This document shows, in pieces, positions 3,876-20,000 of a stretch of DNA of 20,000 bases. The notes under the pieces are model-generated. The model was not told the DNA's origin. It worked only from the letters and a program-made list of their open reading frames with translations, and ran no database searches. The stretch covers positions 47,428 to 67,427 of the forward strand of contig JYFJ02001879.1 in NCBI GenBank assembly GCA_000934665.2, in the 5' to 3' direction. The stretch is from Catajapyx aquilonaris (taxonomy: Eukaryota). Every line of letters begins with the position of its first letter. Position 1 is the first letter of the stretch. The position numbers and the translations under genes were made by a program.

Positions 3876-5610
3876 ACGACACAGGAAGCAAATATTGACA
3901 ACCTTCAATAAAAAATAGTAAAGTGAATTTATAGAAAGGACAGATAATCACAATATAGATGTAGTTGAAGGTTAGTATTTTACGATAGTTTGTAATATAT
4001 GAGTTAGGAAATTGCTGACAGGTATTGTGTAGTGCTTCTGGATTCCAATCACGTGCAAGACTCTACAAGCATTTAATGAGAAAAGGGGCTGTCTAATTAA
4101 CACGTCTGAAAAAATTCCTCTCAACACGCGTATCTAGAGTCAAATTGTACAGTGTTCATGTGTTGTTATTCAATTTATCAGGCCGGTAATCCCTTATTAG
4201 TGCTGTAAAACAATTAAACCACTGGGATCATTATAAAACTCGTGGGAATGGAGAGTGAAAGGATTCTAACCCTTAAGAAGCGGGATAATAATACCACAGT
4301 ACATTAATTAAAATTCGCGTAATTAAATACACGCCGGAAACAGTTCGTTTTTGTAGCAGTAGGAAGATTAAATCATAGTGCACAGTTAAATCATTCTATT
4401 CGGGCACAATACCAAACAACCATTGCTATCATTAAATAAAATAATAATATTGTAAGCTGGCCACTTCATAAATACATCTGACGAGTGACGAGTAAATTAT
4501 GACTGTCAAGACGTTTCATTAATTACCATATAAAAACAGCGTGTCCTACTTTCCAATAGTAATAAGAATGACAACGTGCCTGACAAAAAAAGGACACACT
4601 CTCACAATTTTTTTTGCCTCTCCTTGAGGCCATATAAGTGTCCTTCCTTTTGGACAACAATGTTTCTAATTTCATCAAAAGCCCTTAATATTTTACTGCA
4701 CAAAACTCACTTCATTTTGACTGTTCTTTTATAACTTTCTGGTCAATTATTGGAGCTGTAATTTTTAAGCTCATGTTGACATAATGTCCTTCACAGAAAT
4801 GTGTAGAAAAAGTTAATATCGCATATTTTTAGAATATCTGCATAAGGTACAGGATATCAAAATGAGTAATAATCAAATTGTGCAATAATTTCCACGGCTC
4901 ATTGTAATGTAAGTAGATTTCACAACCGGCCTAACAATCGCCAAAAAAAAATTTAGGCACTTCACAATTGCTGCTATCAAAAAATCAACCTTCGACACCT
5001 AATTGCCCTTCATTATCCAAATTATTCACAAAGGTCCCCACAGTGGTCCCAAAGAAAGTGGAAGAACTGGTATGGAGATTTTGATTTCTAGTTTGATATT
5101 CGTGTGGAATAAGGGACAATAAGGAGGCTGTATTTCTTCAGTGTGAAGTGGGCTACTTGCAATACACAACAGTCCTGACCTACCCCACTGCAAAAGATGT
5201 TGGACAAGGTGGTTGCATAAGATACAGCGCCAAGGATCCTGGGAGCTCATTTGCTGGGAGCATGTCACACCTGACATATACGCTTCAGTCACTAGAGAGG
5301 AAGCTTGGAACCATGGCTTGGAACTGAGTCACTGACAACAATATACAGTTGACAAGTGTCAGCGAATAGATTATCACATCGATAGCATCTAGACAAGATG
5401 GATACCACAGAAGTTAAACAAGTGAGTACACCTCTAAATTATTAATTACTTATTGCACATTATTGCCAGAGAAATTATCCATGAATGAGCATTAACACAA
5501 CAATATGGTTAAAATTATCAATTATTATTGGAATATTATCGAAATTATTCGAATTATTTATGTTCATTTATTAATAATAATAATTAACTACTGTCACTTA
5601 ATTCTATTAT

Positions 5611-5731
5611 CAATTATTATCAATTAATTATTATTGTCAATACAATCAATTATTATCAATTAATTATTATTGTCAATACAATCAATTATTATCAATTGAT
5701 TGTTATTGTCAATACAATCGATTATTATCAA
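5611..5731. repeat. AT-rich minisatellite, 36 bp unit, ~3.3 copies
   Basis: Unit caattattatcaattaattattattgtcaatacaat at 5611, 5647 and 5683. Confidence 0.85.
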
Positions 5732-5782
5732 TATTATCAAATGTTATTTTAAAACTACTACTTTTGAAACAACATCAATAAT

Positions 5783-6340: not shown

Positions 6341-9247
6341 ATGGATTCAACAACAGTGAATGTGAGTATGGAAAAATGAAACTGATATTATGTCACTGAC
6401 ATAATTCTGGTTATGTCCTCATGCAGCATGAAAATGGCATAAGAAGTGCATCAAGTTTGATAAAAACATACGAATCTGAATTCCGTCTGAATCAGCTGCA
6501 ACAGTTGCTAGCATTGTACGAAGAGAATCGGTCCAATCTGATTCAATGCCTCCAGAGAGATTACAATACCGTAAGTACCCTGTGTTTGTTCCGAAAAAGT
6601 GTCAACCTACAATCGGCATCCCCTCCCCCTTCCAGACGTTTGATATCCAAGATGTGACCAGCCTGATCCAAGAGGTGAGAGCAACAATCGAGAAGATCCA
6701 AGAATGGACCGGCACCAAGAGGATGTCAGGATTGCTCTCGATGAATGTGGTCACTCTCAAGAAGGAATCTGTGGGCTCTGTCCTCATAGTGTCTGACCCT
6801 CACTATCCCCTGCACCTAAGCCTGCTGGCATTTCCTGCTGCCATATGCGCCGGAAATGTGGTGGTCATCAAAGCTCCAGATGGAACACCACTTTTCACCA
6901 GAGCCATCACCCAGCTGTTGCCCAAATATTTGGACCCGGTAAAGAAATTTGATATATGCCAAAAGATCAGGCCCGAAAAAGCAAATAAACAAATCGTAGA
7001 GCCAATAGAAATCCATTGTTCAATATTTGGCATTTTCAGCTACGAATAAATAATTAAACTATTGATAGTAATTAAAATAATTATTTAATTAAAATAATGC
7101 AAGTAATTAATTATATTATAATGGCGCAATTAAAATAATTATTTAATTAAAATTATAAAAGTAATTAATTATAATATAATGACGCAATTAAAATAATTAT
7201 TTTATTACAGTGATAAAAGTAATTAATTATAATATAATGGCGCAGTTAAAATAATTATTTAATTAAAATTATAAAAGTAATTAATTATAATATAATGACG
7301 TAGTTAAATAATTATATAATAATAGTTATATAATGATTAAACTAATTATTATATTATGACATATTTAAAATAATCCAATTATTATATTATGACATATTTA
7401 AAATAATCCAATTATTATATTATAACATAATTAAGATGTTAATATAATAATACTTAATCGTTTTATTAGAATTAAAAATATTGTATGATAAACTGCAATT
7501 ACATGATAATTAGAATGATATAATATAGCCATCATAATAAAACTAATATTAAAATAATTATACCGTACCCTAGATAATAGTAATTAGACTATTAATAAGT
7601 AATAAAAATAATCTTGATATAAACAAACAAACAAATAAAAATTGATATTCTTCTCTCTTGATTGGTGAAGTTCATTTAAGACCTAAAGATTCATAAAGAG
7701 CCAGAAAGTCAGAAATTTCTGCCTTCACTAGCACGTTAGCACGTGAAAGGATTAATTTGTGGATTTCTCTGTTGTATGACGACAAAATTGTGATGATAGG
7801 GCCTACGGTATATTATTTATTAGTTAATGATCGATTAATTATTATTTACCACCTCATATCATTCCCTTCGAACTATGCCCCTATTTTGATTACACAGGAA
7901 ATCTACCGGGTCATTCCTGGCGATTCGGATGTGGACACAGTGTTGGGAGGTCATTTCGATCGCATCGTGGTGATGGGCAAAGCAGGGATCATACGCAAGG
8001 TGTACGCGGCTGCTCAAAAGGAACTGACCCCAGTCACTGCGGTCACCAACGGGAAAAAGTAAGCCACATTTTGTCCAAACTATTCTCATTTATTACCTTC
8101 ATTATTTTCAGCCCAGTTTATATTGACGACTCTATTGATATCGAAGTAGCAGCCATCCACATAATTGAAGCAAAACTATCAAGTTTTAGCAGACCATGCG
8201 TAGGTCCTGACTACATTCTGTGCAACCAAGTAGTACAAGAGCATCTCATATCCACGGTGGTCAAGATGTCAGGTCAAATTGCCAACAAGTTCTGGCCAAT
8301 TAGCAGCAAGGAAAATTTCGAGTAAGTTTTTTATCGAATTGACATAACATTCTGATTACCAATATTGTTGTTTACATAGCCGATTGAAGTATCTGCTGCA
8401 AACTACAAAAGGACGCATTTTGTTAGGCGGACACATCGACGAGCAAGGACAACGTATATCTCTCACCATTGTTGCGGACGTAGCCAAAGACGACCCACTT
8501 TTTCAGGAAGAGTTTTTGGGCCCCATTCTTCCAATTGTTGAAGTGAAGACAGTGTACGACGTCATATCACTTACTCGTAGAACTCGGTAAGTAATTATCA
8601 CCTTATTATCTCACTGAAGTTCTAGTGTACCGCTGGGCCGTTACTCCCCCCTACCGTTATCGCGAGCACTAGCGACATTGCGCTATTGGTGGTTAAGACA
8701 TGAACCTCGAAGTTGTGAACTGTCGCAATTTTTTTTAACATTTCAGAGATCGTGCAAATTCCGGCAAGTGGACAGATTACAAGATGGCTGCAAATGTATT
8801 GTACGCCTTTACAACCAGGAGGATCGCCCAAGTGCGTCTGATGCAAGGGACATTGGCAGCCAACATTGTATTCAACAGCACCAATATTCAAAGTAAGTAC
8901 CCAACATATGAAGGGTGTGGTAGAAAAACGTGACAACACACATTTTTATGTCGCTGTTACTGTGGGAATTACACTGATAGATGTTATTTCCAGACGATGT
9001 CAGCAACTACTTTCTGTGTGGAGAAAGTGCTTACAAGTTATTCACCAAAACCAAGGTGGCGAATAGGCTGCCCTTGAAGCATGTGTCTGAACCTTCTGAC
9101 AAATCATCTGTTCATGAAGAGTCTTGTACCAACAGTAATTATTTTGGGACCAAGCAAGTTCTGGACAGCACCATCCCTCATAGGTTAAAGATAATAGCAG
9201 TTTCTATATTCGCTTTGTTCATAGCTCATTTCTTAGGATGGCAGTAG
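6341..9247 (+). CDS. ALDH3: Divergent ALDH3-family (fatty aldehyde dehydrogenase-like) protein, paralogue 1, 8 exons, ~481 aa, C-terminal TM anchor
   Basis: Hand-spliced exons 6341-6361, 6427-6570, 6636-6938, 7898-8058, 8112-8321, 8380-8586, 8747-8892, 8994-9247. All introns are GT-AG and the total is 1446 nt, in frame. ALDH3-like motifs: FRLNQLQQL, GSVLIVSDPHYP, AAICAGNVVVIK, LLPKYLDP, LTPVTAVTNGKNPVYID, RPCVGPDYILC, DDPLFQEEFLGPILPI. Hydrophobic tail IIAVSIFALFIAHFLGWQ. Confidence 0.9.
7070..7430. repeat. Intronic AT-rich minisatellites (58 bp x ~4, then ~33 bp x 2-3) in intron 3 of paralogue 1
   Basis: Unit aattaaaataattatttaattaaaattataaaagtaattaattataatataatgRcgc at ~7070, 7128, 7186 and 7244, followed by attatattatgacatatttaaaataatcca repeats. 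Confidence 0.85.
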
Positions 9248-9416: not shown

Positions 9417-10919
9417 GAGGCAAATGGTTGTACTATTAATTCGCTAAATAATTGGCGTTAAGTGGGGAAATTCTGTTAAGTGGTATTAGTTGACGCTATT
9501 ACAGCATAGAAGTACACAAGGAAAAAAATAGTAGGAAATGTTCACTGTCAGTTCTGGCAGAGTCATAACAAATCCAGTTCTTAAACTTCGTTGTTACGGT
9601 TTTTTTCTGTCATTAAACTTTCTCCTTGAATATTTGTGACCTCAAGGCAAACTGAATTGACCTTCTGGAAGCAACCAGCAATCTGGTTTTCATAGGTATT
9701 GAATAAGAAGAAAAAAAAGAGAGCACTTTTTGAGCATCATACCGTGCGCAGGCAATGTTTTTGCAATATGACGGTCACGTAGTTTTACACATTACGTAAC
9801 ATTAAGCAAGCATTGTAAATCAAAACAACATTTCCAGGATATCTTCTAAATTTAAATAACAATTAAAATAAACCCACAAATGCGCAATAGGTATAAAATC
9901 CCCGAGAAAAACTACGCACTGTTGAAGGCCAATGGTAATTGCTCAAAATAAAATAACCGTGAAACAGACGTCATGTCAACTAATTAGCACTGAAAACTAT
10001 AAAGATGTCATCAATTAGCAACCTGGCTGTAAATTTTTGACATTTACACTTGCTTGTGGCTTCGTATTTAAAAAAAATAAACAATCATTGCTTCCCATAA
10101 GTATGTGAAATTGGCCGATTGTCCTAAAAAATATTCAGGTACCGGTATGTGATATCAGGAGCAAAATATTCCAAATATTTCAGGGCGGAAATCCGTTTGT
10201 TGCAATCAAAAAATTTCCCTTTCGTTCAAATGTTGTTAATAACAACACCGTGACTAACATATTAAAATTTTGATTTACTTTCAAGCCTCTTTCGCAAGAT
10301 TGGCTTTTCTCTCAACGCTATAGTGCAATAAACGTCCTTCAATATTTAAAGAGAGACTATTTATATTCACTATTTCCTTCATAAAACACTGCGTAGTGCA
10401 CTCATTAAATCATCTAGTATTTTCCAGACAGATTTGATGCCGGTTTTTTCTGGTTCAAGTAATATGCATCATAAACATAGGGTTGCATTTCCCCTTTTTT
10501 TCGCAGTCAGCTCACAAGATGACTGACCTACAATTTTTAAAGATGACAAAAAAAAGTTGGAATTTGTCTAGGGAAACCCCCTATTTCAAGGACGCTGAAC
10601 CTCACGTGTACAAAGGTGCACGCAATCACTTTTCTAGTTGTAAATGATTCTGTCACGAGTACACAGTAAAGATTGATGTATTAACTCTTAACACACTGAA
10701 ACTCGCCCATTAAAAACGTAAAATGCATTTTTTTAAAAAAAAATCGTTGTGCATTATTTCTTATGAGGTAAAGTTTTTTTTACAAATTTCTCCGAAAGTT
10801 TCTCTCAGAAAATGTCAAGTGCTTACCAAATAATTCAGAATTAATTGGATGCATCATTTCTGTAACAAAGGTACAGCATATGTCAACAATGCAATCTTCA
10901 AGTGTACACTCTTAACCAT

Positions 10920-11067
10920 TTACCTTCTCTAGAGAGGGTAAGAAAGTGGCCATTTTTTACCTTACATTGTAGGGTAAATATTCTTGGGTAAATTGATTCT
11001 AAGGTAAATTTTGCATGTATTACCTTAGAAAATAGAGGGTAAAAAGGGCCTCTTTTTTACCCTCTAT
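10920..11067. repeat. Cassette of four adjacent inverted repeats built from TTACCYT/ARGGTAA
   Basis: Hairpins at 10920-10941, 10956-10978, 10997-11030 and 11032-11067. Confidence 0.8.
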
Positions 11068-11723
11068 ACCCCCCAATATATTAAACACTTCAAAATGCGC
11101 ACCAAACCTGAAAAAAATAATTACTGGAAACTATTCGGTTCAAACTACTGTAGTTTAGAATGAGCCAGTTTTCAGCAGATATGTCCACATAATGCAAACG
11201 ATGCAGCATAGTTTAATAATTCATCACAAAATATTAGTTAGTGAAGAGAGTCATTGTCAATGTTCCGCACGGGTACCTTTATATACCTTCTTGAATAAGG
11301 AGGTCACAGTGAATTATGGTATACATCTGCTACTGGCAGTACAAAAACTCACTTGCCCAGATATTGCACAACCAGATCTCTCTTGGTGTATTGTTGGCAG
11401 AAGGTCGACCTTGTATTATTACAAAAAAATAAATAACACTCGATTACATCATTAATCCACAAGATTACTCGATAGTAAAAAAAGTTACAGAATCAAACGG
11501 TACATTTTATTATCCGTATAAGTTGTACAGTAAACAAAACTACGCACAATTTTGATTTTGTAAATGACAACACATGCCTTACGCACGGTCAATTAGCATA
11601 TGTAATGCAAACTATTCTTCAGCTTTTGTCAAATTTGTTACGGTTTTTGTCTCCGGTTGGTGAACTGCCTCACCTTGAAGTAGGCTACACTGACCTTGTG
11701 GAATATAACGAACCACACACGAG

Positions 11724-12176: not shown

Positions 12177-13937
12177 ATGGAGTTGAAAACAAAGTCTGGC
12201 CTATTGAAAGCATGGGATCGGCCATTTCGTCTAGAACAATTGCAAAAATTGATTGCATTGTACGAAGACAACATATCCACACTGATTGAATGTCTTCAGT
12301 CCGATTATGGCATGGTAAGTACACACACGATTCTAGTTACAAAAATCAGTAACTAAGTGTAATTTATTGTAGGGATCATACGCTCACCATATAAGGTCGC
12401 TGATTAGCGAGGTCAAAGAGTGTATCAGGAACTTCCATATTACAAACACCAAACGGACATCTGGACACTGGATGTCCAAACAAATTGTGACAGAAAAGCA
12501 TGAAGCGGCAGGATTGGTACTGATTGTGTCAGATAGCAATTACCCATTGCCACTCTGTTTGTTGTCATTGCCTGCAGCCATTGCTGCCGGAAATATGGTG
12601 GTCATCAAGCCATCGTTATGTACACCGGAGTTCAACAAAAAAATGGAGTACTTGATGTCGCAATGTTTGGACCAGGTTGGTGACACTGATAATTTAAAAT
12701 AATTTAAAATAAATTTATTCCGAACAATTTTTGAAGGACTGCTACCGGATAGTGTTGGACTTGTCTGTACCGGACGTTCTGGCCTGCCGTTTTGATCATA
12801 TCCTGTGCATGGGAAATGCGAAATTCGTACGTGTTGTGTACGGTGCAGCGCAGGAGCAACTGGTACCCGTGACGATCGTAACAAACGGAAAAAAGTACGT
12901 AGGATTTTATTAATCATTCAGAAAAATATTGTTGCCATAATATTTTGAGCGTAAAAGCAAATATTGTTGCCAACTTAATAGCCCCGTGTATGTGGACGAC
13001 ACCTGCTGTATTGAAGATGCTACAAGGCAAATCATACATGCCAAAATGTCCAGCTTGAGTCAACCGTGTAAGTCACCCGATTACATCATGTGTACTGAGC
13101 CTGTCCGGAACAAAATTGTGGACGAGGCTACCAGAATTTTGGGACAATCAGACACATTCGTACGAATAGCAAGCGAGGACAATTTCAGGTTGGTATAACT
13201 GGAGAGCTTACCATGCTAATGTACTGATACATGTGTTTCAGACAATTGAAGCGGCTTTTGGGTGACACAAAAGGACATGTGATTGGCGGACAGTTCGACG
13301 AAGGACAACGAATGTCGCTCACAATTGTCACGGGTGTCACAAAAGATGATCCGCTTTGGACAGAAGAGTTTGTGGGTCCTCTACTTCCGGTGATTACAGT
13401 GGCCAACGCCTACGACGCCATATCGTTTGTTCGTAACAAGTCAGTCAACGACACTTAAACTGACAAATACAATTTACTAAACGAGCATACTTTTCAGGCA
13501 ATGTATGGGAACATTTTGGCCTGACCATACGTTAAAACCGCTGGCATTTTACGCTTTCACGACCAAGCGGTTGACACAGATGCGTCTGATGGATGGTATT
13601 GTGGCGCAGAGAATTTTTTTCAATACAATACAAGCCATAGGTAAGTACTTAGTTACCATGGTACTTACCTCAAGTAATATAACACTGCTTTACAGACTGC
13701 GACACCGAGGCTGCTAGAGGACTGATCACAAGTGGACAAAACGCATTTGACATGTTCAGCAGAAGCAAAGTTGTGTATCGATGCGTACCTGAACCTCTAC
13801 CTTCCTTAGAGCACGATAAGTCAAACACTAATAATCGGAAATGGCAAATTTTACCTGCTAACATACCTGTTGCTTTCAATTTGAAGATTGTGGCTGTTGC
13901 TTTGTTGGTTCTATTCCTGGCCCAAATGTTTGGATAA
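12177..13937 (+). CDS. ALDH3: Divergent ALDH3-family protein, paralogue 2, >=7 exons, ~462 aa, C-terminal TM anchor (5' start uncertain)
   Basis: Exons 12177-12314, 12373-12675, 12737-12894, 12982-13188, 13242-13439, 13498-13640, 13696-13937. GT-AG introns, 1389 nt in frame. Motifs: FRLEQLQKL, VLIVSDSNYP, AAIAAGNMVVIKPS, PVTIVTNGKNPVYVD, QPCKSPDYIMC, EEFVGPLLPV, KPLAFYAF. Tail IVAVALLVLFLAQMFG. The frame is open upstream of ATG 12177 to a possible acceptor at 12135, so an extra 5' exon is possible. Confidence 0.88.
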
Positions 13938-14286: not shown

Positions 14287-16110
14287 CTACACGATAGTGA
14301 GCCCAAAAATACCTACCAATGACACAAGTATTAGACCCACAGCCACTTTCATAACACCAAAATCACTGGATGGTACCAATTGTGATAGGCCGTCACCAGA
14401 AAATCCAGACTTGATCCAAGAATCTCGATGAGAAATCTTGATTCTCGTGAGCAACTTGTAGGCCTCTTCTCCTCTTATCACGTACATTTCGCTCGGAAGT
14501 GCGGAACTCTTTGAATCCACTGTTACAATACATTTTAGATCATTAGATTTCACATTGGATTTTTGTCTGTAAAAACATGCATACATACCGGTTGTGTCGT
14601 TGAATCGTATCATGTCCGATGGAATTGTCTGTAACATTCTGATACAAGGTATTCGCTTACTGATAAATGCGTAAGTCACCATCGCTCTCAGCTTGTAATC
14701 AGGCCATGTGGAATCTGTTACCTGCCTGTAATTAAATACCACAGTAAGCTTCTTACTCAACAAGACATGTCAATAAGTCACCCACATCTTTCGGATCTGA
14801 ATCATTGCGTCATATGAAGTGATCACAGTCGTAATAGGCAGGATGGGCCCTGAGAAATTTTGAGTCAAAAGCGGATCATCTTTAGGGACGTCAACAACAA
14901 CAGTCAGTGCCATTTGTCTACTATTGTCGTCCACATCTCCACCAATGACAATCCGACCTTTTGTGGACCGCAGAAGTGTCTTCAATTGGCTGCAAATTAA
15001 TTTATTAGCATCTTAATTTGCAGGTTACAGGATATCACCTACGTAAACTGGTCCTCCGAATGTATGTGGCAGAAATGGGGTTTACCATAGCCCATTTCCT
15101 TCATCATGGCCACAATTTTGTCCTGCAATGTGGCAGAACACAACACATAGTCTGGAGCTATGATGGGATACCTCAAATTAAGCAGCTTTTTCTGAAAGAT
15201 GAACTTGGCTGTTGCCTGGACATCACAAGATTCGTCCACAAAAACAGGGCTAAAGAGGACAAAAGACATTTGGTATTATCACATTGCGTAATTTATAACT
15301 CCACACCTACTTCTTTCCTCTGATACAACCAGTCACCGGAACACAATCGTTGTAAGCAGCCTTGTAGACCTTCCGACCCAACTTCTCCTTACCCATGTAC
15401 ACGACATGATCGTAGCTGAATGTCAAAAGCTTGTCCAGAAGTGATTCGTCGCCATGGACGACGTGAAAACAATTCTGAAAGCAAATGCTGGTAAGTACAC
15501 AAATAATTCTGGGCGTCGAAAGTGCTCACCTCATCAAGATACTTGGGAATTAATTCGGCAAACTTCGTTGAGGAAAGTGGAGTGACCTGCGAGGGTTTGA
15601 CAATGACTGTGTTCCCTGCAGCAATGGCAGCAGGAAGAGGTAAGAGGGACAGGTACAAAGGATAACAATCGTCTGCTACTATCAGCACCACTCCTACACC
15701 TTCCCGCTTTTGGGTGACCATACTGTTGGAAAATATGGTTTTGGTGACACGTTCAGTCCTGGTCCATTCATCGATGTGACTGATGCTGTCCTTAATTTCT
15801 GCGATCAGGTAGTCGATGTCCTTAAAGTCTTCCTTCTGCGTACAGTACATGTTAAGCAATGCAGTAAATTGTCACATGTTGCTACCTACTGCGTGATAGT
15901 CGCCTTGAAGACAGTCCATCAGAACATCTTTGTTTTCGCAGCAAAGTTGTAACAGTTTTGTCAGCTGAATGCGACGAAATTCAGCTGAACTTAACTTTCC
16001 AACATTTCCTTTATGGCGTGCCGCTTCCACCACCTGCAAGTAATTAAACTAATAATTAGACTAGGCCTAATAAAGTTAATTACTGATCGTACCTTAACTG
16101 CTTGATCCAT
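14287..16110 (-). CDS. ALDH3: Divergent ALDH3-family protein lacking catalytic Cys, paralogue 3, 8 exons, ~470 aa, C-terminal TM anchor
   Basis: Minus-strand exons 16110-16093, 16033-15890, 15835-15530, 15474-15311, 15249-15043, 14989-14786, 14725-14589, 14519-14287. GT-AG introns, 1413 nt in frame. Motifs: GVVLIVADDCYP, AAIAAGNTVIVKPSQ, ELIPKYLDE, PVTGCIRGKNPVFVD, YPIIAPDYVLC, QNFSGPILPI. Tail VAVGLILVSLVGIFGLTIV. Confidence 0.9.
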
Positions 16111-16163
16111 GTTTGTGAAGAGATAATCCGGAGTGTAATGAAGTAGTTGGAAAAATGTCCTTC

Positions 16164-16171
16164 TATTTATA
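16164..16171 (-). promoter_or_regulatory. Candidate TATA box of paralogue 3
   Basis: TATAAATA on the minus strand ~55 nt upstream of ATG 16110. A similarly placed motif occurs upstream of paralogue 4. Confidence 0.45.
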
Positions 16172-17452
16172 CCATGTTCATTACCATACAGCTGCTTTAC
16201 CCTTCACACGAAATCACGAAAACTCACTGATTGTTGGATCCTTGAGGCGAAATATGCGAATTGTTCATGTATCATACAGTATGTGGTAATAAACTGGTTG
16301 CAAAACTGGCACTCTTCACATGGACATGCAAATTTTAGATTGCTATTTACGCGGATTAAGCAAGATTGCAGCATGTCAAAGCATATTCATGGTGGTAATT
16401 TGGATGTTGTGCAAGTTTGGACGTACACGATGACTATGGTAACGCGTGTATCGCAGGTAGTTCCATCTCCCACTTCCGGAATATTATATTCTCCGGCGTT
16501 CACATATTATTTACAGTAGAGGGAAAGGGTTTATTTACGTCACTCTATCCGTGGTTACCACAGACAAATTTGCATAAATTACGTGTGCTTCTTACTCTCT
16601 ACTTTTGACAGGAAATAATTCTTGTACGGTTTATTAATTGGAGTCACTACTAATTACAAAAATATTTTGATATACATCGGTTTTTAAAATAACTCTCTTT
16701 TAAAATGTTCACTGGTTTAAAATAAGCAGATTTTCTCAAAAATTGATAACAATTTGCGTTGCAACGTATTTTGTTTCCGCTACAATATATTTTCATATGG
16801 CGCTGAATATTCTCACGGCCTCGCCTTTTTGAGAAGTGCGTGAGGACTTAATTGGTTTCATGAAGAAAGTGTTCCTAATTTAGGGCTTACATAAAGGTAT
16901 AATCTGAATTGCGGGCACTTAAATTGGCCCAATGAAAAACTCCTCCTTCTAATTACGACATATAGTGAGAAAATGCAAGTCTTTTCACTTCTAGCCTCTG
17001 CACCAAAAAGAAATAAAGTTACACCCATTACCTCTAGATCTAAGAGAGACAAGTGTGCCTGTTGACCTCTGAACAAAATATATTGGGAATTTGTATGATG
17101 TCAAGGAGGTCACAAACATATGAAACTTTTGATGTTGATTCGTGTTCCAATTTTTATGAAAACATTCAAGCTGAACACTGTGGTAATGAATTAGATTCAA
17201 TAACGAAGTTTGAAGCCTGTTCATATTTTATTGATCATTATACACTCATTGTACAGCACATAAGAGTATCTAAAATCAAGTGACTATCACATGCAAAATA
17301 ATCCAGGATAATAATATATTATTATCTCTGTTACTAGGATTTTGTAAGATACTGCTATTTCTTTACCAGAAAACTAACATGACCATCCATCGATTTTGAC
17401 CCAAGTGTGTCTATTGATTGTTCTACAGATATGAAGGGTTATAGGTTACATT

Positions 17453-19309
17453 CTACATGACCTTGAGCCCAAAAAAGCCTGCCATGGTCATCAGTGTCAC
17501 ACCCACCACCACTTTCATGACACCAGGATCACTGAACGACGACTGCACAAACTTGCATACACCATCTCCTATCAATTCCGACTTGATCCAAGAATCTCGG
17601 TGGGAAACCTTGATTCGCGTGAGCAACTTGAAGGCCTCTTCTCCTCTTATCACGCAAATTTCGTTCGGAAGTGCGGAATCCTTTGCTTCTCCTGTTGGAG
17701 TACAAATATCGTGAGGACTAGCCTTAATTTTCTTGTAAAAAGCTATACATACCCGTGGTGTCCATAAATCTTATTGTGTCAGACGGAATTATTTGCAACA
17801 TTCTGACACGTGATATTCGCCTATTAGTGAAAGCATAAGTGACCGTCGGACGCAACTTGTAATCTCTCCAGCTGGACTCTGTTTTCTGCCTGCAAGACCA
17901 TATCAAAATTAGGCTTATTACTAATCAAGTGGTTGTGAATTAGACTTACATTTTGTCGATCACAAGAATTGCGTCGTATAAAGTGAGTACTGTCGAGATC
18001 GGCAGTATAGGTCCTGAGAAATCTTGAGTCATAAGCGGATCATCTATAGGGACGTCAGCCACAACAGTCAGTGCAATTTGTCTGCTATTGTCGTCCACAT
18101 CTCCGCCAATGACAATCCGTCCTTTGGTGGACCGCAGAAGATTCTTCAGATGGCTGCAAATTTAGAGAGGGTGTTTAATTAGCAGCTTAATTGCAGATTA
18201 AAGCATATCACCTACGTAAACTGGTCCTCCGAATGTGTGTGGTGAAAATGTGGTTTCCCGGAGCCCATTTCTTTCATCGTGGCAACAATTCTGTCCTGCA
18301 ATGTGGCCGAACACAACACGTAGTCTGGAGCTGTGGTCGGATACTTCAAATTCAGTTTCTTCTTCTGAAAGATGAACTTGGCGGCTTCCTGGATGTCACA
18401 AGATTCGTCCACGAAGACAGGACTGCATGGAGAGGACAAAAGACATATTTGGTTTTGTTCAAATAGTGAAAGTCCAAACCTACTTCTTTCCTCTGATACA
18501 ACCAGTCACTGGAACACAACCATTGTAAGCAGCCTCGTAGACATTCCGACTCAGCTTCTCCCTGCCCATGTACACTATGTGATCATAGTTGAATCTCAAA
18601 AGCTTCTCCAGATGTGAAGAGTCGCCAGGGACGACATGAAAACAATTCTGAAACCAAATCCATAAGTCCACAAAATAATTATGAGTGTCTAAAGTGCTCA
18701 CCTCATCAAGATACTTCGGTATTAATTCGGCAAACTTCTTTGAGGAAAGTGGAGTGATCTGCGAGGGTTTGACAATGACGGAGTTTCCAGCAGCAATGGC
18801 AGCAGGAAGAGGCAAAAGGGACAGGTACAAAGGATAACAATCGTCTGCTACGATCAACACCACTCCTACACCTTCCCGCTTTTGGGTGACCACATTGTTG
18901 GAAAACATGCTTCCGGAGAGGTTTTCAGTCCTGGTCCATTTGTCGATGTGACTGATGCTGTCCTTAATTTCTGCTATCAGATAGTCGATGTCCTTCAAGT
19001 CTTCCTTCTGCGTACAGTACAAGTCCATACTTAGCAATACAGTAAATAATTGTAATATGTTGCTACCTACCGCGCGATAATCGCGTTGAAGACAATCCAT
19101 CAGAACGTCTTTGTTTTCGCAGAGAAGTTGTAACAGTTTTGTCAGCTGTACCCGACGAAATTTAGGAGAATGCAGATTCATTATATTTCCTTTACGACGT
19201 GCGGCTGTAATAGCCTGCAAATTAATAATACAAGACAGTAATAAATGAGGTTTAAATATGCATTGTTGTCATGCTCTGATGTGTTTCTTACCTTTATTGC
19301 CGGATCCAT
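17453..19309 (-). CDS. ALDH3: Divergent ALDH3-family protein lacking catalytic Cys, paralogue 4 (closest to paralogue 3), 8 exons, ~472 aa, C-terminal TM anchor
   Basis: Minus-strand exons 19309-19292, 19214-19071, 19007-18702, 18647-18484, 18422-18216, 18153-17950, 17889-17753, 17691-17453. GT-AG introns, 1419 nt in frame. The first seven exon lengths are identical to paralogue 3. Motifs: DDCYP, AAIAAGNSVIVKPSQ, PVTGCIRGKNPVFVD, YPTTAPDYVLC, QDFSGPILPI. Tail VVVGVTLMTMAGFFGLKVM. Confidence 0.9.
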
Positions 19310-19354
19310 GGTTGAAATGCCTGAAGTAAATCATAAATGAAGACGTATACTGTG

Positions 19355-19362
19355 TTTATATA
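19355..19362 (-). promoter_or_regulatory. Candidate TATA box of paralogue 4
   Basis: TATATAAA on the minus strand ~45 nt upstream of ATG 19309. Confidence 0.45.
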
Positions 19363-20000
19363 GGTGCACGCACCACTTCATTAGCATATTATATTAAGCA
19401 GTCTGTTGCCTTTGTTCCCATGAAACGCCCTGATCATGCCCTCCTCGAACCAGAATCAGCGTTGTGAATATTGCTCAACTGCGGTGCATGAGGAAATGAA
19501 TATGTTATATAACAGATGCAACATCTCTAGCTGAACCATGCGAATGATATTTTTTATTTAATTATGCATGAATAGATTGAGCAACAGAGATACTACCGAA
19601 AACCTTCTTTTGAGTTGGTTGAATAAAATTCCAACGGATGATGATATTACGTATATTGTGTTATGCAAGCTGTGCAAGCTCGCATTTGGAAATACAAACT
19701 CTAATATTGTAGAGTGTCTATCATGACTGTGTACTTATTTACGTCGTACGTTGAAAGCGGTTTTATACTTATATACCGTAGTCTTACTCGTATTTGCATT
19801 TTTATAAGTAAGTGATTATAACCTATCCTATACACTAATACATTATGAATCAAAATTTATTCTGCCTATTATGCGTCAACAACTGCTGTCAACAACACCG
19901 CCCGTCGCAAGTTCTGGGTGTTCCTGCTCCATCATGGCCAATACACCGTCGCCTGGGAGACTGCTGTCAACAACACCGTCCGGTGAGATAGAGTCTGCCT

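Follow-up and report, generated by a model that had tools for sequence, protein, structure and literature searches.

To our knowledge, very few pseudoenzymes with an aldehyde dehydrogenase (ALDH) fold have been described, the textbook example being ALDH16A1. Omega-crystallin, the ALDH-derived lens crystallin of cephalopods and scallops, represents a non-catalytic recruitment after duplication; omega-crystallins are abundant, soluble proteins derived from the ALDH1/2 class. Here, we analyze a stretch of 20,000 nt from the genome of Catajapyx aquilonaris (assembly GCA_000934665.2, contig JYFJ02001879.1, positions 47,428 to 67,427 of the forward strand), hereafter called the window and numbered from its first letter. 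It contains an array of four tandem ALDH3-like, tail-anchored genes (P1–P4), two of which, P3 (16110-14287, minus strand) and P4 (19309-17453, minus strand), are the subject of this study. The reading we favor, at a probability of roughly 0.6, is that P3 and P4 are selected, tail-anchored genes with a class 3, FALDH-like fold whose products no longer act as NAD(P)-dependent aldehyde dehydrogenases.

The nearest solved relatives of P3 and P4 are ALDH3A2/FALDH (4qgk) and ALDH3A1 (3sza, 1ad3), matched at E-values of 8.6e-15 to 1.6e-13 over the N-terminal half and of 3e-6 to 1e-5 over exon 5. Domain order is alike, the KPS and GP.LP motifs and many structural glycines and prolines are kept, and a C-terminal hydrophobic anchor is common to FALDH and the two proteins. 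For FALDH, such an anchor is described together with a gatekeeper helix (PMC8160307). In contrast to both enzymes, P3 and P4 have all four catalytic residues replaced at an overall identity of about 30–36%, their WNYP, ELGG, GQTC, EIFGP, and PFGG.G.SG motifs are altered or missing, and they lie on a long private branch together with P1 and P2.

ALDH16A1 shares with P3 and P4 an ALDH fold without the catalytic cysteine but has a separate origin, class 3 being the source of P3 and P4. Two chains of 767 residues, 6mvr and 6mvu, which we take to be bacterial ALDH16, match P4 only at an E-value of 2e-5, and we know of no ALDH16A1 with cysteines at the Asn and Glu positions discussed below. Nothing in P3 or P4 indicates a lens-type role comparable to that of omega-crystallin. 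Human ALDH16 lacks the catalytic cysteine and is considered to be a binding protein without catalytic function (PMC8160307). Within the window, P1 and P2 belong to the same clade as P3 and P4, share their intron positions and the tail anchor, and have likewise lost Glu209 and ELGG. Unlike P3 and P4, they keep Cys243 and Glu333 (P2 also Asn114), and spliced contigs cover both of them.

Replacement of catalytic residues in P3 and P4

The catalytic set of ALDH3A1 comprises Cys243, Glu209, and Glu333, while Lys137 and Glu140 set the cofactor preference (PMC13737355). The catalytic thiol is that of Cys243; Glu268 (ALDH2 numbering) activates the water needed to deprotonate the thiol and to hydrolyze the thioester, and the cofactor is held by Glu399 and Lys192 (PMC8160307). 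Glu333 and Phe335 contact the nicotinamide ribose, with the glutamate being catalytic in class 3 (PMC13737355, PMC8160307). The oxyanion hole is formed by Asn169 and the backbone NH of the cysteine, and in a related ALDH, Cys-to-Ala and Glu-to-Ala exchanges left 1/120,000 and 1/63,000 of the activity, respectively (bioRxiv 10.1101/2023.03.13.532361).

According to the initial annotation, which was made from the sequence alone, P3 and P4 lose the catalytic cysteine and gain cysteines at the oxyanion Asn and general-base Glu positions. All six codons concerned read on the minus strand as it had stated. At the Asn114 position, which is Asn in 69 of 69 relatives and in P2 and His in P1, both genes encode Cys111 with TGT (P3 15667-15665, motif DDCYP; P4 18839-18837). 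The Glu209 position (Glu in 67 of 69 relatives, Val in P1 and P2) holds Cys206, again TGT, in P3 (15327-15325, PVTGCIRGK for PVTLELGGK) and P4 (18500-18498). At the position of the nucleophile Cys243, conserved in 66 of 69 relatives and kept in P1 and P2, P3 carries Ile240 (ATC, 15164-15162) and P4 Thr240 (ACC, 18337-18335).

Several changes add to this picture beyond what the initial annotation had recorded. Glu333, present in 65 of 69 relatives and in P1 and P2, is replaced by Asn324 in P3 (AAT, 14859-14857) and by Asp324 in P4 (GAT, 18023-18021). Two codons on, both genes have Ser in the Phe335 column, which is Phe in 68 of 69 relatives. The exchanges of Glu209 for Val in P1 and P2 and of Asn114 for His in P1 are likewise new. 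A third common cysteine, Cys200 (TGT; P3 15345-15343, P4 18518-18516), lies in the same column in both genes, six residues before the Glu209 column, and replaces a Leu that 67 of 69 relatives (97%) have in common. We considered a CxxxxxC metal motif made of Cys200 and Cys206 and rejected it: the stretch is presumably a beta-strand, as in ALDH3A1, on which two residues six apart should point far away from each other.

The columns were taken from a MAFFT alignment with 69 relatives of 420–620 residues out of 162 fetched proteins; the 93 fragments and fusions left out include the 1020-residue tandem fusion P0014. In a motif census across the 162 proteins, counting those in which the motif could be located, the expected residue was present in 99 of 99 cases for Asn, 101 of 102 for Glu, and 80 of 83 for Cys. 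The register, originally set by anchoring on APDY, was the same in HMMER (phmmer) alignments to solved ALDH3A1 and FALDH, which do not pass through this anchor. P4 'livaddcyplyl' fell on 'liigawnypfvl' of FALDH 4qgk, with Cys opposite Asn, and 'pvtgcirg' fell on FALDH 'pvtlelgg', with Cys opposite Glu. In an ungapped 51-residue alignment of P4 exon 5 with ALDH3A1 3sza, 'ypttapdy' was set on 'qtcvapdy', placing the first Thr opposite the nucleophile Cys. That the three positions share one pocket, as had also been proposed, agrees with the literature.

The alterations extend further into the conserved core. At a conservation of 90% or more among the 69 relatives, 64 columns qualify; 37 of them are retained in P1, 41 in P2, and 37 each in P3 and P4, with 27 of these near-invariant columns being lost in P3 and P4. 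Trp113 has become Asp and Glu140 Gln, the Thr before the GxxxxG turn is gone, and the Leu-Glu-Leu-Gly of ELGG reads Gly-Cys-Ile-Arg, including a change of Gly to Arg. The Gly, Gln, and Cys of GQTC are replaced, and the PFGG.G.SG loop is missing. The cofactor lysine Lys137 (Lys192) is kept, being Lys in P1–P4 and in 69 of 69 relatives. From the literature roles of the lost residues, we strongly infer that neither P3 nor P4 still oxidizes aldehydes in an NAD(P)-dependent manner.

P1 and P2 are also far from canonical, both having VTNG in place of ELGG. With Cys243 and Glu333 kept, these two genes may still encode enzymes.

Family placement, tail anchor, and selection

Pfam PF00171 (Aldedh) was matched by P4 exons 2–4 with 50.6 bits and by P3 exon 3 with 49.1 bits (cut-off 23); exon 6 pieces stayed under the cut-off with 20.4 bits, and exons 5 and 8 alone gave no match. 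The best solved relatives were class 3 ALDHs and FALDH, with P4 matching PDB entries at E-values of 1e-13 to 1e-15. Eight of the ten PDB sequences at E ≤ 1e-12 are ALDH3A1, FALDH, or class 3, by title or by the same length and score; the other two (6k0z; 5myp/5nno) have just 'aldehyde dehydrogenase' as their title. A maximum-likelihood tree of 73 rows united P1–P4 in one clade (Shimodaira–Hasegawa-like approximate likelihood ratio test, SH-aLRT, 100) on a stem of 0.84 among canonical ALDH3 sequences. Inside this clade, P1 and P2 were grouped with a support of 94 and P3 and P4 with a support of 99, the latter pair on a further stem of 0.5. The clade falls within the starred 22-row set that also has named insect ALDH3 rows; 12 of the 69 relative rows of the tree carry organism names.

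A single C-terminal transmembrane anchor, resembling that of FALDH, is predicted for P1–P4. The hydrophobic tail spans residues 452–470 in P3 (14346-14290, minus strand) and residues 454–472 in P4 (17512-17456, minus strand), with top 19-residue Kyte-Doolittle windows of 2.72 and 1.85, respectively. The distance between the end of the best 19-residue hydropathy window and the C-terminus is 0 residues for P3 and P4, 1 for P1, and 5 for P2.

We searched for orthologues of P3 and P4 in protein and metagenome data. All 13 matches at E ≤ 1e-10 among 2666 candidates were canonical ALDH3 proteins at 31–37% identity. When the 243-residue read-through of P4 exons 2–4 was searched exhaustively by HMMER against 1.84 billion representatives, 2498 matches were obtained at E ≤ 1e-3 and 0 at E ≤ 1e-30. 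Two metagenome scans yielded 216 and 599 pattern matches, 0 of which were confirmed as orthologues. In the literature, word searches of open-access text retrieved neither a class 3 tail-anchored pseudoenzyme nor a Cys-for-Asn or Cys-for-Glu pattern.

P3 and P4 are both under purifying selection, although not tightly. Their proteins are 76.4% identical (359/470), and the Nei-Gojobori method (NG86) gave a non-synonymous divergence (dN) of 0.136, a synonymous divergence (dS) of 0.46, and a ratio of 0.296 (bootstrap confidence interval 0.22–0.39; highest of 2000 replicates 0.49). At four-fold sites, 42 of 159 positions differ (0.264), as compared with a pN of 0.124. Exons 1–7 are of equal length in the two genes and exon 8 differs by one in-frame 6 nt; the seven intron pairs are identical at 305 of 389 positions (78%; shuffled baseline 62%) and contain many gaps. 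When polarized by P1 and P2, the amino acid changes amount to 20 in P3 and 24 in P4, with 67 left unpolarized. No marks of decay, be it stops, frameshifts, lost introns, or a dN/dS near 1, were found in either gene. The earlier view that the altered sites do not reflect random decay is thus borne out by open frames of 470 and 472 codons, GT..AG borders at 14 of 14 introns, a dN/dS of 0.30, and the balanced changes on both branches.

Divergence is not uniform along the two genes. The block from intron 2 to intron 5 (P3 15043-15889; P4 18216-19070), which includes all three sites of the initial annotation, is the least diverged at silent sites. Four-fold differences amount to 13 of 76 (0.17) in the block vs 20 of 57 (0.35) in the flanks (p = 0.025), and intron identity to 183 of 213 (86%) vs 122 of 176 (69%; p = 1e-4). 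This mosaic suggests that the block is a gene-conversion tract.

Over exons of P3 and P4 (15040-15913, 17225-19400), contigs from DNA sequencing runs reached a depth 2–4 times that of single-copy sequence. A variant contig over 15309-15462, at full single-copy depth, carries at least ten differences, none of the ten listed lying at the Cys200 or Cys206 codons, and a contig joint from 15847 to 19068 links a P4-like exon 2 to a P3-like exon 3. The extra depth, the variants, and the joint would be explained by further paralogues, by a recombinant copy, or by an artefact of the graph, and more copies of the P3/P4 subfamily probably exist.

Functional reading and its alternatives

If P3 and P4 are indeed selected genes that gave up dehydrogenase chemistry, a canonical ALDH3 gene would have been duplicated in tandem and then evolved fast. 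The ELGG motif would have been lost on the common stem of P1–P4, and Glu209 either there or separately in each pair; the replacement of Cys243, Asn114, Glu333, and Phe335 would fall on the P3/P4 stem. The old pocket of P3 and P4 would have been re-lined with Asp-Cys for Trp-Asn and Gly-Cys-Ile-Arg for Leu-Glu-Leu-Gly, and the new cysteines would belong to this re-lined pocket. P3 and P4 most likely end a graded series leading from P2 over P1 to P3/P4. Their proteins would most likely work without turnover, in a binding, scaffold, or regulatory role at the endoplasmic reticulum or peroxisomal membrane. Possible roles would be to retain a lipid or aldehyde in the former substrate funnel or to form pairs with active ALDH3 subunits.

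Four points weigh against this reading. A ratio of 0.30–0.41 is high for strong constraint and fits relaxed selection too. The protein and metagenome searches gave no P3/P4 orthologue, conservation being seen in this genome only. Lys137 and the initial Gly of the GxxxxG turn are kept in both genes, which leaves room for some nucleotide binding. Finally, P3 and P4 agree with each other but differ from P1, P2, and the canonical majority at 128 columns, 4 of which hold Cys, and 3 of these 4 lie at columns that are at least 97% conserved, where simple loss of function would predict otherwise. That the four cysteines would include both the Asn114 and the Glu209 column has a chance probability of 7e-4, a post hoc figure. 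A gain of Cys at two near-invariant columns, or three with Leu203, is unusual.

In another reading, the two pocket cysteines, perhaps together with Cys200, would form the center of a new activity; this might be a disulfide or redox switch, the binding of a metal, or the covalent capture or sensing of lipid aldehydes and other electrophiles at the membrane. We consider a rebuilt thiol site of this kind unlikely. In its favor, both cysteines stand for residues that touch one bound aldehyde carbon in canonical ALDHs (PMC8160307; bioRxiv 10.1101/2023.03.13.532361; ALDH3A1 docking for Cys243 and Asn114), and each required at least two nucleotide changes (AAY to TGT; GTN or GAR to TGT). The neighboring blocks VADDCYPLYLSLLPLPAAIAAGN and CVPVTGCIRGKNPVFVDESCD are identical between P3 and P4, and dN is at its minimum (0.08–0.09) in the alignment segments over the three sites. 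The initial annotation had based this interpretation on the retention of both cysteines in both copies. The absence of random decay stands, but retention is uninformative: 76% identity predicts sharing, all four codons are TGT, and the formerly invariant columns are identical between P3 and P4 at 16 of 21 positions, the same 76% as the whole protein. Because of their shared ancestry and the low silent divergence of the site-bearing block, P3 and P4 are not independent witnesses. The tips of Asn and Glu reach the carbon from different sides, and unless the backbone moves, the shorter Cys side chains would probably be too distant to form a disulfide or to bind a metal together. Furthermore, the cofactor side of the pocket is gone, and no orthologues that would share the cysteines appeared among the searched proteins and metagenomes. 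A more far-reaching version sees P3, P4, and the further copies as a young, expanding family that traded the catalytic quartet for thiols on two walls of the active site, creating a new thiol center at the foot of the fatty-aldehyde funnel (a trap or sensor for lipid electrophiles, or a redox or metal switch); this strikes us as quite unlikely.

The mosaic of silent sites, with its hint of gene conversion, is one argument for a further reading, in which P3 and P4 would be functionless copies on their way out, with accidental cysteines that drifted under relaxed selection and were homogenized. The high ratio, the lack of an orthologue among the 1.84 billion representatives, and the fact that P3 and P4 already differ from each other at the nucleophile (Ile/Thr) and Glu333 (Asn/Asp) positions agree with such a fate. 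Still, it is very unlikely in view of a ratio significantly below 1 even at the bootstrap maximum, of 14 intact splice-site pairs out of 14, and of the complete lack of stops and frameshifts in 2 × about 1415 nt at a silent divergence of 0.26–0.46. Indels are frequent in the introns but absent from exons 1–7, and both branches are equally constrained (20 vs 24). Highly improbable, in turn, is a persisting aldehyde dehydrogenase with position 111 or 206 as the new place of its nucleophile. To judge from the literature cited above, a thiol in the Asn114 column would adjoin the substrate carbonyl, and Lys137 is kept. However, neither of the two glutamates is present, and the oxyanion Asn, Trp113, Phe335, and the glycine of ELGG are lost as well; Glu140 has become Gln, and there is no PFGG.G.SG loop. 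No residue remains to activate water or to seat the nicotinamide. This dismantling of the nicotinamide side (Trp113, the ELGG Gly, Glu333, Phe335) counts against a migrated nucleophile in NAD(P)-dependent chemistry. No such case turned up in the literature on ALDH pseudoenzymes and altered catalytic residues, in a search that was not aimed at moved nucleophiles.

As selected genes without dehydrogenase activity, P3 and P4 would represent a class 3, tail-anchored lineage in which all four catalytic residues are gone while selection persists, next to sisters that keep the nucleophile. The series of P2, P1, and P3/P4 allows one to ask what the ALDH scaffold serves after its chemistry goes. Should the pocket cysteines be functional, P3 and P4 would exemplify a catalytic pocket built anew around different residues, of which few cases are documented, and a new thiol center, if true, would amount to a re-invention of the catalytic site and not its loss. 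If they are not functional, P3 and P4 would be an ordinary, lineage-restricted pair of pseudoenzymes.

Gene array and other features of the window

The window contains no long bacterial-style frames, and its sequence is eukaryotic. ALDH-like exons were found on both strands among the stop-to-stop frames, and exon ends were set by coordinates from three-frame translations. All 27 introns of P1–P4 have GT..AG borders and lie at homologous positions and phases; they measure 53–160 nt, apart from a single intron of 959 nt in P1. Each frame has one stop, which is terminal. P1 (6341-9247, plus strand) consists of 8 exons encoding 481 amino acids and P2 (12177-13937, plus strand) of 7 exons encoding 462 amino acids.

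P3 and P4 comprise 8 exons each, encode 470 and 472 amino acids, and have introns of 53–69 nt and 54–77 nt, respectively, seven per gene. The exons of P3 lie on the minus strand at 16110-16093, 16033-15890, 15835-15530, 15474-15311, 15249-15043, 14989-14786, 14725-14589, and 14519-14287. Those of P4, also on the minus strand, lie at 19309-19292, 19214-19071, 19007-18702, 18647-18484, 18422-18216, 18153-17950, 17889-17753, and 17691-17453.

Support for the gene models came from contigs of run X5, another sample under the same species label. They skip introns 5, 6, and 7 of P1 exactly, a loose end matching the start of P1 exon 5 supports intron 4, and one 1365-nt contig skips the introns of P2 exactly (6/6). 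No intron-skipping contigs were present in the DNA runs X1 and X3, so we regard X5 as RNA-derived and the P1 and P2 models as confirmed. The exon plan and intron positions of P3 and P4 are those of P1 and P2, whose splicing is confirmed by these contigs. X5 has no cover over 14603-19400, a blank that is uninformative either way on the expression of P3 and P4. The X5 transcript contig of P2 differs from the window by single bases at 13341, 13541, and 13606, probably polymorphisms between the samples. Downstream of the P1 stop, a 589-nt X5 contig (9402-9990) without a long frame is probably the P1 3′ untranslated region or an unannotated transcript.

The G+C content is 34–45% per 1-kb bin, with a single exception of 24%. 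An AT-rich minisatellite at 7070-7374 (58-nt unit × 5.2) lies inside the 959-nt intron 3 of P1 and accounts for both the 24% bin and the one long intron of the array. Further AT-rich minisatellites occur at 2652-2806 (36-nt unit × 4.2) and 5609-5732 (36-nt unit × 3.4). No tRNA genes were found in the window, and the open reading frames at 1083-1547, 1793-2140, and 5026-5328 gave no Pfam match. The first of these regions, with a G+C of 0.44 and overlapping open frames of 123–154 codons on both strands, could represent what is left of a repeat, or an exon belonging to an unknown gene. The only two N letters of the window, at 2296 and 5802, are crossed by frames giving Gly or Pro runs, which places each inside a G/C homopolymer run; they probably reflect assembly uncertainty. 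Between P1 and P2, a very high-copy element at 10670-11106 reaches a contig depth of about 14,000 over a baseline of about 30 (X1). It includes inverted repeat arms of 33 nt at 10930-10962 and 11036-11068, which are 82% complementary and separated by 73 nt, and it resembles a miniature inverted-repeat transposable element.

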